Source: a virus. Taken from it: a stretch of 64,000 bases of DNA. The translations under genes were made by a program, and so were the position numbers. The stretch is taken from positions 32,001 through 96,000 of the IMG/VR virus record IMGVR_UViG_3300033145_003080, one strand, 5' to 3'. Positions 2,908 through 30,626 of the stretch are shown piece after piece (the stretch's first letter is position 1; each line of letters opens with the position of its first letter). The notes under the pieces are model-generated. The model was not told the DNA's origin, did no database searches, and saw only the letters and a list, made by a program, of their open reading frames with translations.

Positions 2908-3157
2908 AAAGCAATCCTCCTTTTTTTCCTGATTTTGGCGGATCTTCCATTGGTATAACTCCAATAAGCTCACCTATTACCGTTCCTTTATTCTCAGCAT
3001 CCGCCACTTTCTGTGCTTCTGCCCACGTTTCCGCTTCAACCCTGTAACCATACATTTCAAGTGTTATGTGACAGAACTTATTAGTACACCATGTTTTCAC
3101 ACTACCCCCTCCGTTTCCCATTGTGCATTCATTATTTTTATAATTTCGGGGGTACAA
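2900..3157 (-). CDS. hypothetical protein (start uncertain)
   Basis: Fills the gap between neighbouring genes with overlapping stop/start. Confidence 0.5.
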   Translation of the reverse strand: MYPRNYKNNECTMGNGGGSVKTWCTNKFCHITLEMYGYRVEAETWAEAQKVADAENKGTVIGELIGVIPMEDPPKSGKKGGLLYE

Positions 3158-3528
3158 TCTTCCTGCCCAACCCTTTCTAAAAACTCTTTCATACCATCAG
3201 ATACAGGTCCACATACTACCCAAGCATGACGATGTTGTACTTCTTTAAGCGCCCACTGAATTGCCGGTGATTTTTTCGGCAATCGTTCCTTTACAAATTT
3301 ACCATGCTCTCCACAAAAATATGAAGCTAACACAGCAATCACTTTTGAAAGACGATACTCTTCTTCATAAAGATTCTGATATTCGTCCGCAAAATTCACA
3401 CATTCGCCAATGGGCGCTTTAGATGCGTGTTTTTTGAAAAAATTTAGCATTTGGTCACGCTTAACCTTTGTCTTTCGGACATCTTCCACTTTTACCTCCT
3501 TAGTCGAAATTTTTACCCCCTTGTCCAT
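3097..3528 (-). CDS. hypothetical protein
   Basis: ORF coupled to the upstream gene. Confidence 0.7.
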   Translation of the reverse strand: MDKGVKISTKEVKVEDVRKTKVKRDQMLNFFKKHASKAPIGECVNFADEYQNLYEEEYRLSKVIAVLASYFCGEHGKFVKERLPKKSPAIQWALKEVQHRHAWVVCGPVSDGMKEFLERVGQEDCTPEIIKIMNAQWETEGVV

Positions 3529-24078: not shown

Positions 24079-24930
24079 TTATTTACAAACTATATCGAAA
24101 AACGCAGAATCAAGACGCTCATAGTCATTATTTGTTAAATTATGAACATTCAAAGTTTCAGCAAATTCTTTATACGCATCGAGATATTTTTGACAAAAAT
24201 CATCAAGGGCATGGATATGGGGACCTTTGCCGAGCTCTTCGCCATTCTTTTTCCGAAGAAGCAAACTAGCAACGGCTTTACTCACATCATTAAAACCACC
24301 CGAAGGCAACATTTCAGCAAATTTAATTAACCTATCGAATTCCATTGGAGGAACACTGGTATTTCTCATAATCCATTCACATACATAAAGAGGCCGGAGG
24401 ACGTACAGATATTTTTTAACTATCACATCACCCTCAACATTTATGATATATTGAGTAAAGTTTTTCCTTGCCATGTGTTCGTAGTGATAGATGCCCGCTT
24501 TCTTCTTAAAAAAATCAACTGCTAATCGTTTGACGGCAGAGATAACAAAGGGGCGTTCCATGTATACAATAGGAGAATAAAGCCATTCTGCCAAGGCTGG
24601 ATTTCCTTTTGATATCAGCTCCATTACTTTAGAAATATCAAATCCGACAAAATCAAGATCTTCCCTCTCGAGACTGCGAATAAAACTACTCGTTGCAATA
24701 TCGCCTTTATTCCGATCGATAACTTCACGACGTGGTTTTACTGTAAAATAAGCACCTGGCCTGCGTACGTAAATGAACCGGATATCATTATCACTATCTT
24801 CAGATGCAAAGCCCCAAGCTTTACTACCAGATTCGCAGGCGTAGATAATTTTGAAATTCTCTAAAATTTCGATTTCTTGTAATACTTCAAGAATTCGTTC
24901 TTTTTTAAATACTTCAATCGATCGGCTCAA
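24079..24930 (-). CDS. DNA-polymerase-beta-superfamily nucleotidyltransferase (RlaP/YcgL, PF10127-like)
   Basis: YACESGSKAWGFASEDSDNDIRFIYV, KGNP..EWLYSPIVY, KKYLYVLRP; TTG start after GGAGG. Confidence 0.9.
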   Translation of the reverse strand: MSRSIEVFKKERILEVLQEIEILENFKIIYACESGSKAWGFASEDSDNDIRFIYVRRPGAYFTVKPRREVIDRNKGDIATSSFIRSLEREDLDFVGFDISKVMELISKGNPALAEWLYSPIVYMERPFVISAVKRLAVDFFKKKAGIYHYEHMARKNFTQYIINVEGDVIVKKYLYVLRPLYVCEWIMRNTSVPPMEFDRLIKFAEMLPSGGFNDVSKAVASLLLRKKNGEELGKGPHIHALDDFCQKYLDAYKEFAETLNVHNLTNNDYERLDSAFFDIVCK

Positions 24931-24960
24931 TTGTACCTCCTTTATAAATAAAAAAAAAGA

Positions 24961-25058
24961 GTGAGTGGGACGTTCCAAAGATCGAACAGACGAAGAAGCG
25001 GGTAGCCATTATCGCTGTTCGAAAGGGAAACCCTCCCGGAATTCCCACGCCCACTCAC
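24961..25058 (-). ncRNA. unclassified ~98-nt structured RNA
   Basis: GTGAGTGGG/CCCACTCAC closing stem, TCGAACAG/CTGTTCGA inner stem, GGG-TTT-CCC side hairpin, 3' U-tract. Confidence 0.6.
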
Positions 25059-25102: not shown

Positions 25103-25762
25103 TTAATCATTTCTTTTTAACCACCGCTTTACAGTTGTGGGGCTAACACCATATTTGTCACCAGTTTTTTTATATCCAAAACTCCCAACACTTCTAATTA
25201 ATTTTTCTTTATCAATATTTTTTATTATACGCCTTTCTTTACTCTCACATTTAGTACACCGTGTGGATTCTTGTAAAATTTTTTTGCCACATTCACATCT
25301 TTTCTTTGGTAATTTTTTACACTTAATATTTCTTCCTGTAAAGGTTGGTAATTGACTATCACAATTTGGACAAACTAACCTTAAGTTTTTTTGTCTATTA
25401 TCATTTCTGACACCGTTTATGTGATCCATTATAAGTACAAGCGGTTTATTTTTCCATTTTTTTATTCCACAAATGTAACATTTATATTTTAATAGCCCTA
25501 AATTAATCAATCTTTTTTTTAGTCTTTTTCCTTTATATGTTGAATTTTTTACCATTATTTTATTTAAAGACATCGGGCTGGATCTACCACCATATCTCCG
25601 ACCTAAAAAATGGGGCCAAATTATCTTAAGATAGTTTATTCTTTTTTTTACAGAACAGGGGTTAGCATGTGGATTTAGACCCAACTCTCTCATTACAGCG
25701 GAGGTGGTAACATTGTTTTTAACAGCTTTTCTTAATTGTTCATCTGTCCAAGTTCTTTTCAT
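25103..25762 (-). CDS. HNH endonuclease inside the tRNA/ncRNA cluster
   Basis: CYICG..DHINGVRNDNRQKNLRLVCPNCDSQ; own TTGACT-17-TATAAT promoter 5 nt before the ATG. Confidence 0.9.
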   Translation of the reverse strand: MKRTWTDEQLRKAVKNNVTTSAVMRELGLNPHANPCSVKKRINYLKIIWPHFLGRRYGGRSSPMSLNKIMVKNSTYKGKRLKKRLINLGLLKYKCYICGIKKWKNKPLVLIMDHINGVRNDNRQKNLRLVCPNCDSQLPTFTGRNIKCKKLPKKRCECGKKILQESTRCTKCESKERRIIKNIDKEKLIRSVGSFGYKKTGDKYGVSPTTVKRWLKRND

Positions 25763-25823: not shown

Positions 25824-25897
25824 CCGCCCGTAAGAGAATCGAACTCTTTCAATTAAGGAATTTAGAGTTCCTCGCCTTCCCATTTGGCTAACGGGCG
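25824..25897 (-). tRNA. amber suppressor tRNA, anticodon CUA
   Basis: Acceptor CGCCCGT/ACGGGCG plus G73, D arm GCC-AAATGGGAA-GGC, anticodon arm AGGAA-CT[CTA]AA-TTCCT, T arm AAGAG-TTCGATT-CTCTT; CCA not encoded. Confidence 0.88.
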
Positions 25898-25929
25898 TTT
25901 TATAAGGACAATGTCGGCCCCATTATTAC

Positions 25930-26012
25930 GCATGAGGTAGGACTGATTACACAACACTCTCCGAAGAGAATATTGCCGGCATCCTTCCGGGTAGCCACAG
26001 CCTGCCTCATGC
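25930..26012 (-). ncRNA. unclassified 83-nt three-way-junction RNA
   Basis: GCATGAGGCAGG/CCTACCTCATGC stem, CCGG/CCGG hairpin, CAATATTCTC-TTCG-GAGAGTGTTG hairpin (cUUCGg tetraloop). Confidence 0.65.
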
Positions 26013-26020
26013 TAAGAAAA

Positions 26021-26116
26021 GTGGGAGTGATGTGGATTCGAACCACTGGCACCGGCACATACAGCATTTGAGCTGATCCTGTGTAAGGGGTTGAACACTC
26101 GTTCTATCACTCTCAC
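26021..26116 (-). ncRNA. tRNA-like RNA 3 (long acceptor, 4-bp T stem, no canonical anticodon arm)
   Basis: GTGAGAGTGAT/ATCACTCCCAC stem, GTGG-TTCGAAT-CCAC T arm, GAAC-GAGT-GTTC hairpin. Confidence 0.6.
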
Positions 26117-26124
26117 CTTTTTTT

Positions 26125-26210
26125 TGGTGGCAGGAATAGGATTTGAACCTACCTGGCGAATTTCAGGAGCCGGCGGTTAACATGGGTCTACATAGTAGCC
26201 ACTTACTGCC
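26125..26210 (-). ncRNA. tRNA-like RNA 2 (acceptor, T arm and CCA; no canonical anticodon arm)
   Basis: GGCAGTA/TCCTGCC-A-CCA, GTAGG-TTCAAAT-CCTAT. Confidence 0.6.
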
Positions 26211-26234
26211 AACGTTGGACTCCTTACACATATA

Positions 26235-26308
26235 TGGTGGCAGGGGTAGGATTTGAACCTACGCAAACCCGTGAAACCGGGCATGTCTTTGCGCTGCATC
26301 ACCCCGCC
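26235..26308 (-). tRNA. aberrant tRNA (tRNA-like RNA 1) with a shortened anticodon arm containing UCA
   Basis: GGCGGGG/CCCTGCC-A-CCA, GTAGG-TTCAAAT-CCTAC, anticodon arm CCCG-GTTTCA-CGGG (6-nt loop). Confidence 0.6.
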
Positions 26309-26329
26309 GTAAATATTGAACTACTCTCC

Positions 26330-26641
26330 TTAAGCCAATGGTAGCTTACTGAATATTTTTCCATCGTCAATACATGCGATGGCAGTTAATTGATTATCTA
26401 TATCAGGCTCATTGAATCCGACGAATTGTTTTTCGCGGCGTCCGAGCTCTTCCTACCAGTACTCCAGTGCTGCGAGATGAGGAACCCCGAGACATATCAG
26501 GGTTTCATTGTTCCATTCCCGGTAAAGAGCGATATCACCTCTCAAAGAGTACTCTGCAAGCGCGTGGTTGCCCTGGACGAAGTTATACTTCGGCCCAAGA
26601 TCCTTACGCAGCAACAGGTATAGTTTCTTCGATTTTGACAT
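26330..26641 (-). CDS. peptidyl-tRNA hydrolase 2 (Pth2)-like protein with an in-frame TAG at codon 63 (26453-26455)
   Basis: KLYLLLRKDL..VQGNHA..W..ETLICL..LEYW*EELGRR..FNEPDIDNQLTAIA..FSKLPLA; family motifs lie on both sides of the TAG. Confidence 0.8.
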
Positions 26642-26930
26642 AGGTGTAATCCTGAATGATCTTTTTAACATGAAGCATATTTGCTTTATTTCCTTCACGA
26701 ACTTTCCGTTCACACTGTTCGTATGTTTTTCCACGAAGCATACAGTAAGCAAGATGCCGATGTCGAATTGCGAATTTAGATGTATGGATCTTAGACTGCA
26801 GATGTCCTGCAGGTTTCCGATCTTTCTGAGTAACCTTCGTGTCCTGTTTTAAAACCCGAAGCGCATTAGCTTCGAGTATTAACTCTTCCTTAAACTTCCT
26901 TGTTAAACATCTCTGTTCTATTGGCAACAT
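26604..26930 (-). CDS. conserved phage protein (RHRHLAYCMLRGKTYEQCE motif), function unknown
   Basis: ORF with AAAGGAG RBS; overlaps the Pth2-like start. Confidence 0.75.
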   Translation of the reverse strand: MLPIEQRCLTRKFKEELILEANALRVLKQDTKVTQKDRKPAGHLQSKIHTSKFAIRHRHLAYCMLRGKTYEQCERKVREGNKANMLHVKKIIQDYTYVKIEETIPVAA

Positions 26931-26995
26931 TGTTATACTCCTTTAAAAAATTAAATAAAATACACTGAATTGCATTATACTAAAGAGTATAACGG
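26931..26995 (-). promoter_or_regulatory. anti-SD/SD translational attenuator
   Basis: GTTATACTCTTTA (26993-26981) is complementary to TAAAGGAGTATAAC (26945-26932), which covers the RBS. Confidence 0.7.
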
Positions 26996-26997
26996 CG

Positions 26998-27066
26998 TTA
27001 GGGCGGTTTGCGTTTACGGGGATAAAGCTACGGTGGGTGTTGAGTAGTAATCTATAATGGTAACAT
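26998..27066 (-). CDS. leader peptide with two in-frame amber codons: MLPL*ITTQHPP*LYPRKRKPP-TAA
   Basis: AAGGAG RBS at 27082-27077; TAG at 27052-27054 and 27028-27030; Pro-Pro before the second TAG and the final TAA. Confidence 0.65.
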
Positions 27067-27194
27067 ATAATTTTTGCTCCTTGCTAATAATATACGTTTT
27101 GGTGAATGAAATTATTTAATTTTTTATAATATTTTAAAAAAGGTAGATAGCTCTGCACGCTCAAGGGCAATTGGGTTCTGCCACTGCACACGAA

Positions 27195-27620
27195 TTAATG
27201 AGCTGTTTTTAAACATAGAGAATTTAACTCCTCTAAAATAACAGCTTCTTTTGCATTCAAATCTTGTATATTGGCATTCGGAAGAACTTTTCTTATTCTG
27301 ATTAATGTTACAAGAGCTTCGTATTCTTTAATTTTATCACCATTTTTTTCCGCCTTTGCCAACAATGCAATAACACTATCAATACTAACACTTCGGCTTT
27401 TATGATTATTCATCTCAGCCGTTAGGAAATCCCGCTTTTTATGATTATCTATCTCAGCCATTAGGGAATCCCGCTTTGTCCTTAACAAGTCGTTTCTGTC
27501 ACGAACTTTATAAAATGTATTGGTTAGTGTTAATTTTTTATTATAATGCTTTTTCTGTATTATAATAAAACCAAATGACAAAGCGATTACAATACACAAA
27601 GCTATAGATAATTTGTTCAT
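27195..27620 (-). CDS. membrane-anchored coiled-coil protein with internal 13-aa tandem duplication
   Basis: N-terminal TM; KRDSLMAEIDNHK / KRDFLTAEMNNHK. Confidence 0.65.
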   Translation of the reverse strand: MNKLSIALCIVIALSFGFIIIQKKHYNKKLTLTNTFYKVRDRNDLLRTKRDSLMAEIDNHKKRDFLTAEMNNHKSRSVSIDSVIALLAKAEKNGDKIKEYEALVTLIRIRKVLPNANIQDLNAKEAVILEELNSLCLKTAH

Positions 27621-27718
27621 ATTTTACCTTAAATTTTAAATTAATTGATTATCTTGATATCATTTTATCCTTTTACCAGACGAAAATGGATAAATTCTCA
27701 TACTCCGCACGTTAATAA

Positions 27719-28174
27719 TTATTTGGCTATATTAACCAATTTTTTTATAAAATTGATTTTTTTCTGAAGACCTTTAATTACTTCTTGATATTTTTCTATA
27801 GATATTTTAATGCCTTGTTCGTTAATAAATGTTTTGCAAATTTTTGAATTATTAAAGATCAAATCAATTTCTCCATCGTCGAATTTTAATATTATACCAG
27901 GTTGAATTTCTATAGACTCATGGCCCCAGCCTGGTCCCATAATCTCAATTATAGTTTTTTCAGCCGATCTGCCTTGGCAATGAATTCGAACCTCCAAATC
28001 ATTTGCATATCCAAACTTCCATTTTGTCATTCCAAGTATTTTGCTATCAAAAAGTTTTTTTATTTTTTTTTGCACTCCCTTTTTATACAATATGTTAATT
28101 TTTTTTTGAAGATTGTCTTCGCACCTGGTATGCCAATTTATTTTATTTTGTAATTTATCAATTTTTTCATCCAT
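27719..28174 (-). CDS. hypothetical protein
   Basis: AAGGAG before MDEKIDK. Confidence 0.65.
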   Translation of the reverse strand: MDEKIDKLQNKINWHTRCEDNLQKKINILYKKGVQKKIKKLFDSKILGMTKWKFGYANDLEVRIHCQGRSAEKTIIEIMGPGWGHESIEIQPGIILKFDDGEIDLIFNNSKICKTFINEQGIKISIEKYQEVIKGLQKKINFIKKLVNIAK

Positions 28175-30020: not shown

Positions 30021-30626
30021 TCATTTTAAATTAAGTTTTTTTATAACTTCTCTGCTAAATAGATTTAGATAAAAGTAGAACTCCCACTCTTCTTCGTAAT
30101 GGAAAACAAAATTCACATCACATCTTTCACAAATAGTAATACCATTTGTAGGTTCTAACCTTAGATCTGGATACAATGAGAATTTTTTAATATGGTGAGC
30201 TCTTAATCTTCCACCTTTATCTCCACAAATTTGACAAACAAAATCATCTCTTATAAAAATGTCTTTTCTCCAATTAAAATAATCAGAACTTTTCCTAATC
30301 CTCTCGTTTATTGTAGTTATTCCTCTAAAATTCCAAGGAATAGTACCTTTCCGCGACGGTGGAACTATTCCAAGCCTTTTATTTCTTTCTGATATTTCCT
30401 TACGATGTTTATCGGTAATTTTATATTCTTTTTTAGCTTTCATAAAAGTTTCAAAATTTTTTGGCATCTTGCCTTTTTTAGCTTCACTTTTACTCCTAAG
30501 AATATCTCTACAGTATTTAATCATAGTTCTTTGGCACACATTCTCTATAAAGCAAGTTTCTCTAACTGTTAAGCCACTTAAATATGTATTTCTCATTGAT
30601 TTAATTTTATCTTTTTTCAACATCAT
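30021..30626 (-). CDS. HNH endonuclease (NUMOD3-like DNA-binding motif plus HNH)
   Basis: TDKHRKEISE..PWN..WRKDIFIRDDFVCQICG..AHHIK..NGITICERC. Confidence 0.85.
   Translation of the reverse strand: MMLKKDKIKSMRNTYLSGLTVRETCFIENVCQRTMIKYCRDILRSKSEAKKGKMPKNFETFMKAKKEYKITDKHRKEISERNKRLGIVPPSRKGTIPWNFRGITTINERIRKSSDYFNWRKDIFIRDDFVCQICGDKGGRLRAHHIKKFSLYPDLRLEPTNGITICERCDVNFVFHYEEEWEFYFYLNLFSREVIKKLNLK

Follow-up and report, generated by a model that had tools for sequence, protein, structure and literature searches.

A leader with two in-frame TAG codons as a probable translational switch reporting amber suppression in a phage genome

Organization of the locus

The window analysed here, a stretch of 64,000 nt, comprises bases 32001–96000 of a 149,037-bp phage record (G+C 37.5%). 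The element lies on the minus strand, in a 264-nt spacer that separates a 141-aa gene (27620–27195) from a 108-aa gene (26930–26604). A Shine-Dalgarno (SD) sequence, AAGGAG (27077–27082), precedes a leader open reading frame (26998–27066) whose ATG occupies 27066–27064 and whose 22 sense or read-through codons and final TAA spell M-L-P-L-UAG-I-T-T-Q-H-P-P-UAG-L-Y-P-R-K-R-K-P-P-UAA. The first in-frame TAG (27052–27054) is codon 5, which follows M-L-P-L and is itself followed by an A; the second is codon 13 and closes a Pro-Pro-TAG (CCA CCG TAG, 27028–27036) that would act as a second amber gate. The frame ends in Lys-Pro-Pro-TAA (AAA CCG CCC TAA, 26998–27009), the proposed site of a ribosome pause or arrest. 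The 108-aa gene, which belongs to an unnamed helical-hairpin family linked to tRNA(CUA), is the proposed regulated gene. Its end is overlapped by a gene for a Pth2-like peptidyl-tRNA hydrolase (26330–26641), and an amber suppressor, tRNA(CUA), is encoded about 1 kb downstream of the leader (25824–25897; ARAGORN; Rfam tRNA, 54.3 bits), both again on the minus strand. An earlier note on this DNA had read the leader SD, the ATG, both TAGs, the Pro-Pro-TAG and the Pro-Pro-TAA directly from the letters, and each of its coordinates proved correct when the sequence was re-read. The 149-kb genome contains a single instance of an SD and ATG combined with an early TAG and a Pro-Pro-stop; 30 shuffles yielded none.

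Genome-wide recoding of TAG (code 15) was considered and rejected, as ORF coverage of the whole genome rises from 0.89 under the standard code to just 0.92 when TAG is read through, and TAG is the ordinary stop of about 26 of the 177 genome ORFs. The genome outside the element reads as standard code, and one homology-supported in-frame TAG was found outside the leader, in the Pth2-like gene (26455–26453). With so many ORFs ending in TAG, strong suppression would be costly, which we count against the switch proposed below.

Just 5' of the leader SD lies a 15-nt block, CCAAAACGTATATTA (27088–27102), which holds a −10-like TATATT (27094–27089) and is unchanged in all ten aligned relatives and in L018, a locus of the wider family described below. 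From its sequence and position, the block is a possible operon promoter. That it might be a repeated phage promoter was rejected, as it is present in a single copy in the genome. A pattern scan for the conserved 5' block matched L016 and L017 only, both of them contigs of the close family, and the scan of the viral contig collection gave no match. A promoter and terminator scan of 26000–28000 and of the region upstream of the leader in L001 scored no canonical site, with no sigma-70 promoter at the 15-nt block; since no terminator was scored, a hairpin with a T-run seen by eye 5' of the leaders of L001, L010 and L011 is unconfirmed. A fold test of the window's spacer upstream of the leader gave no significant structure.

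Coding selection across both TAG codons

A blastn search of the region against a phage GenBank collection returned no match, and searches of IMG/VR loci with the 108-aa or the 141-aa protein as a single query found no relatives, whereas an alignment-based search succeeded. The close family consists of seven homologues of the 108-aa protein at 39–79% identity, whose contigs were fetched, and seven distinct leader sequences were compared. In this family the spacer is more conserved than the genes that flank it, and its changes follow codons. The two leader indels found among the seven relatives, of 6 and 3 nt, are both in frame, and the variable leader columns number 10, 5 and 15 at the first, second and third codon positions. 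Columns in which the codon varies and the residue stays the same number eight in the leader frame versus two and none in the other frames. All four proline codons (CCA, CCG, CCC and CCT) are used among relatives for the first Pro of the Pro-Pro-TAG, and likewise for the last Pro of the leader; Arg is written as CGC, CGT or AGA, and Lys as AAA or AAG. All nine codons 3' of the second TAG vary; in six, the changes are confined to synonymous ones or to Leu/Ile exchange.

The leader SD is invariant throughout this drift, as are both TAGs and the TAA (7 of 7 distinct relatives). Such a pattern is characteristic of a frame that is translated through both TAGs as far as the TAA. Since the TAGs are never swapped for a sense codon while their neighbours change, TAG itself is under selection. 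The proposal in the earlier note depended on the leader being translated, and coding selection that spans both TAGs in seven distinct relatives argues that it is. The start of the leader (27064–27052) also resembles that of the 108-aa gene (26928–26916), in that both read M-L-P-L/I and several relatives have ATG TTA CCA ATA, which suggests that the leader arose by duplication of the 5' end of the 108-aa gene.

A predicted helix over the ribosome-binding site of the 108-aa gene

The sequence GTTATACTCTTTA (26993–26981), which begins 4 nt (CGCC) past the leader TAA, can form 13 pairs, with one bulged G, with TAAAGGAGTATAAC (26932–26945), the SD and spacer of the 108-aa gene (ATG at 26930). This anti-SD pairing had been claimed in the earlier note, and it is present in the sequence. 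In a fold of the region that runs from the TAA through the first 13 nt after the start codon, the anti-SD:SD helix is both the minimum free energy (MFE) structure and the centroid. The fold has an energy of −18.3 kcal/mol, compared with an average of −9.7 for shuffled sequences (z = −3.3), of which 1 of 200 reached this value. Further out, the helix also takes in UAAC(G) of the leader stop, paired with the initial codons of the 108-aa gene, and the complete anti-SD strand of the MFE helix (26981–27000) is composed of UAAC, the stop and 1 nt, together with GUUAUACUCUUUA (26993–26981). When genome ORFs are ranked by pairing between the ribosome-binding site (RBS) and its upstream region, the 108-aa gene comes 9th of 177, a position that is notable and not unique.

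The 11-pair core of the helix is conserved in the seven close relatives, with 96% of its cells paired. No two-sided compensatory change was seen in this close family, where the substitutions comprise three that give G-U pairs and two mismatches; as the helix is nearly invariant, the close family alone says little about it. The most distant close homologue (39% identity) is represented by two independent assemblies, L014 and L015 (bases 1–54), which both break at one and the same base. The break falls inside the would-be anti-SD (TACTCC, facing GGAGTA of the RBS), so the leader cannot be read there.

A competing local hairpin noticed in the earlier note, TTATACT-CTTT-AGTATAA, is indeed present (26992–26975). 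Its 3' arm, AGTATAAT (26974–26981), copies the SD spacer and contains TATAAT; the arm is kept in the close family with one-sided changes and is no general feature of the wider family. It is conceivable that the 108-aa gene has its true promoter in this TATAAT (26979–26974), with the inverted repeat as an operator, in which case the leader would be a separate small gene and its complementarity to the RBS incidental. The box is perfect and sits within a conserved inverted repeat, and the CATAAT and TATTAT found in relatives retain the key −10 positions. However, the box has no −35 partner and was not called by the promoter scan, L010 has TATAAC together with an 8-nt insertion in the loop, and distant loci that lack the box keep the anti-SD complementarity in different letters. 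We regard this explanation as very unlikely.

Recurrence of the design in distant phages

An exhaustive profile-free search places 305 representatives, each of about 100 residues, in the 108-aa family at E ≤ 1e-3; the conserved motif is R-H-x-H-I-A-Y-C-L-L-R-G-x-x-Y-E-Q-I-E. Neither Pfam nor PHROG holds a matching family, the Pfam hits being isolated, weak and limited to single members. AlphaFold2 predicts a long helical hairpin with additional short helices (pLDDT 93), for which solved structures offered no sequence match, Foldseek no significant match and Atlas features no usable match.

An alignment-based scan gave a wide family of 24 IMG/VR phage loci (L018–L041) on contigs of 8–258 kb, with 29–63% identity over the best matched segment. 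A Pth2-like gene lies directly 3' of the 108-aa gene in 22 of these loci, and 20 have a tRNA(CUA) no more than 3 kb away, mostly 570–1500 nt downstream of the gene start and on the same strand. About 22 of the 24 have an SD-led upstream mini-ORF with an early TAG, which ends 46–74 nt before the gene start. It takes the form M-(1–3 residues)-TAG-(3–15 residues)-[K/R]-[P/G]-P-stop, with its end overlapping the anti-SD of its own locus; examples, with x for TAG, are MTxKFKPP, MKKxMLKPP, MRxMTKPP, MSxVYNKPP, MKxIAKPP and MLxTLHxVFKPP.

Of 23 leaders, 15 have their first TAG at codon 3 and 21 have a purine after it, and the number of internal TAGs is one in 17 leaders, two in five and three in one. 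A proline stands immediately before the stop in 19 of the 23, the window included, and 19 end in [K/R/I]-[P/G]-P-stop with varied synonymous codons. The KPP-stop of the window is common in the family: the endings include 14 KPP, 2 RGP and one each of KGP, RPP and RGPP, which resemble the R-A-P-P/R-A-G-P motif in pattern and do not match it as defined. Four leaders lack a Pro ending, and three end in TAG itself. Leader length ranges from 7 to 23 residues, with the early TAG and the C-terminal tripeptide being all that is conserved family-wide, and a TAG replaced by a sense codon was found in none of the 23 leader loci. Judged by these features, some two dozen distant phages share the design. 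The leader could in principle be a functional 22-residue micropeptide written in a code in which TAG is sense, with the RNA pairing serving ordinary coupling only. Such a peptide would fit the clear coding selection, but the family-wide loss of everything other than the TAG and the tripeptide, the spread of lengths, the absence of any sense codon in place of TAG and a genome that is not TAG-recoded leave this idea with next to no credibility.

Across the wide family, the sequence that follows or overlaps the leader stop complements the SD and spacer of its own locus, in letters that differ between loci. The window's anti-SD GTTATACTC faces GAGTATAAC, and the corresponding pairs are GTAATCTC and GAGATTAC in L018, CATACTCC and GGAGTATG in L024, ATCTCCATAG and CTATGGAGAT in L033, and AATATCTCCT and AGGAGATATT in L034; the anti-SD starts between −8 and +5 nt relative to the leader stop. 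We calculated duplex energies for the 24 loci between the segment from −90 to −33 and the RBS from −22 to +4, and compared cognate with non-cognate pairs using 20,000 permutations. Cognate duplexes have a mean energy of −14.5 kcal/mol, compared with −8.7 kcal/mol for non-cognate ones, and the cognate mean was reached in 0 of 20,000 permutations. The control is a fair one, because non-cognate pairs also hold an SD and CUCC-like motifs. Row by row, the cognate RBS pairs best in 13 of 24 cases, and column by column in 18 of 24. At the level of sequence, this excess amounts to covariation that supports the helix.

The consequence of a ribosome on the leader was modelled with partition functions. 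In the free RNA the SD has a median accessibility of 0.01. A ribosome placed at the first TAG leaves this low, at 0.005, whereas one at the final stop raises it to 0.49 (Wilcoxon p = 2.4e-6, n = 23). The window's own SD shows a weaker effect, with a modelled probability of being unpaired of 0.01, 0.01 and, with the ribosome at the TAA, 0.15. The earlier note held that a ribosome pausing at the last stop would cover the anti-SD and free the RBS, and folding with and without the ribosome footprint bears this out in the model, as the SD opens only with the ribosome at the final stop.

The position of the first TAG and the identity of the neighbouring gene bring to mind minigenes such as bar of phage lambda, which are toxic when Pth is limiting. 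M-x-UAG would then lead to peptidyl-tRNA drop-off, the Pth2-like enzyme would handle the products, and suppression would not be sensed at all. The prevalence of codon 3 as the site of the first TAG and the regular presence of a Pth2-like gene next in the operon speak for such a minigene, and the coding selection past the TAG, the KPP-stop ending, the covarying anti-SD and the linkage to tRNA(CUA) are left unexplained by it; we therefore consider it highly improbable.

The suppressor tRNA and the Pth2-like gene

The close relatives L004 and L005 likewise have a tRNA(CUA) downstream on the same strand. In sequence the window's tRNA(CUA) is unrelated to those of L004 (4813–4887) and L018 (4485–4559), which resemble each other. 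This difference points to a conserved design with an exchangeable tRNA, in which the suppressor tRNA was apparently substituted and the leader design retained. Between the Pth2-like gene and tRNA(CUA) there are further tRNA-like elements (25900–26320, minus strand). One of them (26235–26308) is given a 2-nt 'anticodon', tt, by ARAGORN and scores 34.8 bits with the Rfam tRNA model, and two near-identical 3' ends, GGTTCAAATCCTA..CTGCCACCA, are found about 110 nt apart in the same interval.

The Pth2-like assignment comes from a family profile that matches solved Pth2 structures (24bt_A, 1.9e-5; 2zv3_A, 1.4e-4; 1rzw_A, 2.7e-3); the single sequence gave no match in Pfam. Five relatives have the in-frame TAG of this gene at an identical codon position, flanked on both sides by conserved protein sequence, and a match to PHROG 3668, 'hydrolase' (1.7e-7), spans this TAG. 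The closest TAG-free relative has Gln at the TAG position, a hint, not proof, that tRNA(CUA) inserts Gln. The Pth2-like genes of L035 (approximately 3137–3436) and L031 (approximately 3140–3445) have in-frame TAGs at positions unlike that of the window, which suggests that this gene acquired amber interruptions on more than one occasion.

A proposed switch that reports amber suppression

We propose, with a probability of roughly 0.7, that the element is a translational switch that reports working amber suppression, and that the 108-aa gene is probably translated only when the UAG-reading tRNA of the phage works; the stalling and the regulation are what we infer from the sequence and the folding models. 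In the off state, the anti-SD that starts at the leader stop would be paired along the SD and spacer of the 108-aa gene and into its first codons. Ribosomes would enter at the leader's own SD and, if no functional, charged suppressor were available, would be released by RF1 at the UAG of codon 5 or at the Pro-Pro-UAG of codon 13, both of which lie too far upstream for the ribosome to reach the helix. To arrive at Lys-Pro-Pro-UAA, a ribosome would have to decode both UAGs by means of tRNA(CUA); there, slow termination at the Pro-Pro-stop, a candidate pause, would keep it over the anti-SD and melt the helix. A second ribosome could then start the 108-aa gene at the freed SD, and the overlapping Pth2-like gene would follow by coupling, with read-through of its own UAG required in addition. 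The presence of two TAGs would make the response steeper.

The reading of the element as a switch draws on several lines of evidence. The leader shows coding selection through both TAGs, and its TAGs and TAA are invariant in the seven distinct relatives; a TAG is apparently decoded elsewhere in the operon, in the Pth2-like gene and its five relatives; and tRNA(CUA) is both close to the leader and linked to the family in 20 of 24 loci. To these are added the family-wide leader design, the covariation of the anti-SD, the modelled rise in SD accessibility, the significant MFE helix of the window and published precedent for the parts, namely the opening of a stem in SecM-secA and stalling on uORFs that end in Pro-stop. 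The attenuator proposed in the earlier note is thereby sustained in its structural elements, that is, the coding selection on the leader, the invariant TAGs, the KPP-stop, the position and covariation of the anti-SD and the nearby tRNA(CUA), and its pause and derepression are putative.

The main rival keeps the same amber gate and dispenses with a programmed arrest. Any ribosome that arrives at the leader end would open the helix or reinitiate, by a coupling such as that of the MS2 coat and replicase genes, and the Pro-Pro would serve otherwise, for example by favouring read-through at Pro-Pro-UAG. The anti-SD overlaps the stop codon, so arrival alone would disrupt the helix, and the helix places the leader stop near the start codon of the 108-aa gene; the four leaders without a Pro ending, and the three that end in TAG, also fit coupling of this kind. 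It is harder to see, if neither the nascent peptide nor termination has a part to play, why [K/R]-[P/G]-P-stop is kept as amino acids in 19 of 23 leaders while its codons vary, and stalling on Pro-stop uORFs is known. On balance we think coupling without a programmed pause unlikely.

Several observations count against the switch with a programmed pause. The window's SD opens in the model to 0.15 at most, the close family offers no double changes in the helix, and the RBS is 9th of 177 in its pairing. Three leaders end in TAG itself and four have no Pro ending, and, from its sequence, the TATAAT in the local hairpin could be a promoter that bypasses the leader.

Beyond the switch itself, the leader, the 108-aa protein, the Pth2-like enzyme and tRNA(CUA) might together form a widespread 'suppression checkpoint', or code-switch module, in which the leader gauges charged suppressor and licenses proteins that reinforce or limit read-through. 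We offer this wider idea speculatively and consider it doubtful. If it were true, the licensed proteins could be, for example, an RF1 antagonist or a tRNA-handling factor, the phage would exert feedback over a temporary change of the genetic code, and the 'orphan' suppressor tRNAs of standard-code phages would be accounted for.

Relation to known leader-peptide systems

In SecM-secA a stalled ribosome opens a stem that holds the SD, and ribosomes on uORFs that end in Pro-stop halt when the stop codon occupies the A site (PMC10987492). The phage element has much in common with SecM-secA, MifM-yidC2 and ErmCL-ermC (PMC10987492): a short SD-led uORF, on the same transcript and strand as its target, a stem that hides the next SD, and a ribosome at the uORF end that covers one strand of that stem. 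The input differs, being the decoding of in-frame UAGs in the phage and secretion force or a drug in the known systems. The phage leaders also differ in being very short (7–23 residues) and in having no targeting signal, and their stalling is a prediction. Set against arrest leaders with sec or yidC targets, the 22-residue leader of the window likewise has no N-terminal localization signal, and what lies downstream is the 108-aa protein and a Pth2-like enzyme. RAPP-like motifs block peptidyl transfer (PMC10951233), and the phage leaders share with RAPP-like and Pro-stop arrest leaders a basic residue two positions before the P-site proline and an ending in Pro-Pro or Gly-Pro. The window has R-K-P-P-stop and not R-A-P-P, and its KPP-stop is a candidate arrest motif.

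In PepNL of E. coli, a near-cognate Trp-tRNA reads the terminal UGA and the arrest is relieved (PMC11890864); it is, like the phage element, a natural leader in which read-through of a stop by a tRNA changes the outcome of arrest, whereas the phage would need a dedicated suppressor tRNA at internal UAGs merely to reach the pause site. In engineered trp and tna leaders with an inserted amber codon, downstream expression needs tRNA(CUA) (reviewed in PMC6412442), and translation of the leader beyond a UAG by tRNA(CUA) is a requirement shared with the phage element. The synthetic leaders act on transcription termination, through rut or an attenuator, while the phage element is natural and would act on an SD helix. 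The 'code-change modules' of stop-codon-recoded phages (bioRxiv 10.1101/2021.08.26.457843) also cluster a suppressor tRNA with translation-related genes and contain in-frame stops that delay expression; the present genome is not recoded overall, its module contains neither a tRNA synthetase nor a release factor, and no leader sensor is described in that survey.

A full-text literature search for a natural leader gated by a suppressor tRNA found none. The earlier note did not recognise its attenuator logic from a described system, and for natural systems this holds in the search made here; SD unmasking by a leader is, however, a known logic, and a synthetic switch with a TAG in its leader exists. 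The element is best described as leader-peptide SD unmasking, which is known, with a new input, the decoding of in-frame UAGs. Autoregulation of prfB, which encodes RF2, depends on a +1 frameshift at a UGA within its own gene, and is similar in that an early in-frame stop measures release factor against an alternative decoding event; unlike the phage element, prfB has no separate leader, no suppressor tRNA and no SD helix.

Many standard-code phages carry suppressor tRNAs that have no known target, and the element would supply a concrete and conserved one. Work on recoded phages has raised the question of how phages time and control stop-codon read-through, for which the element would be a natural, compact sensor of suppressor activity, one that links these tRNAs to a new protein family and a Pth2-like enzyme. 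A natural amber-dependent riboregulator would also be relevant to genetic-code expansion, where the equivalents are engineered only.

Other features of the surrounding genome

The tRNA region is flanked by two HNH-type endonuclease-like genes (25103–25762 and 30021–30626) and by a gene for an RlaP-family nucleotidyltransferase of an RNA-repair pathway (24079–24978; Pfam E = 5e-67), all on the minus strand. The window also encodes a phage tmRNA (48244–48644, minus strand; Rfam, 162 bits) with an unusual, short tag, ARQDIAVI, that is followed by two stops.
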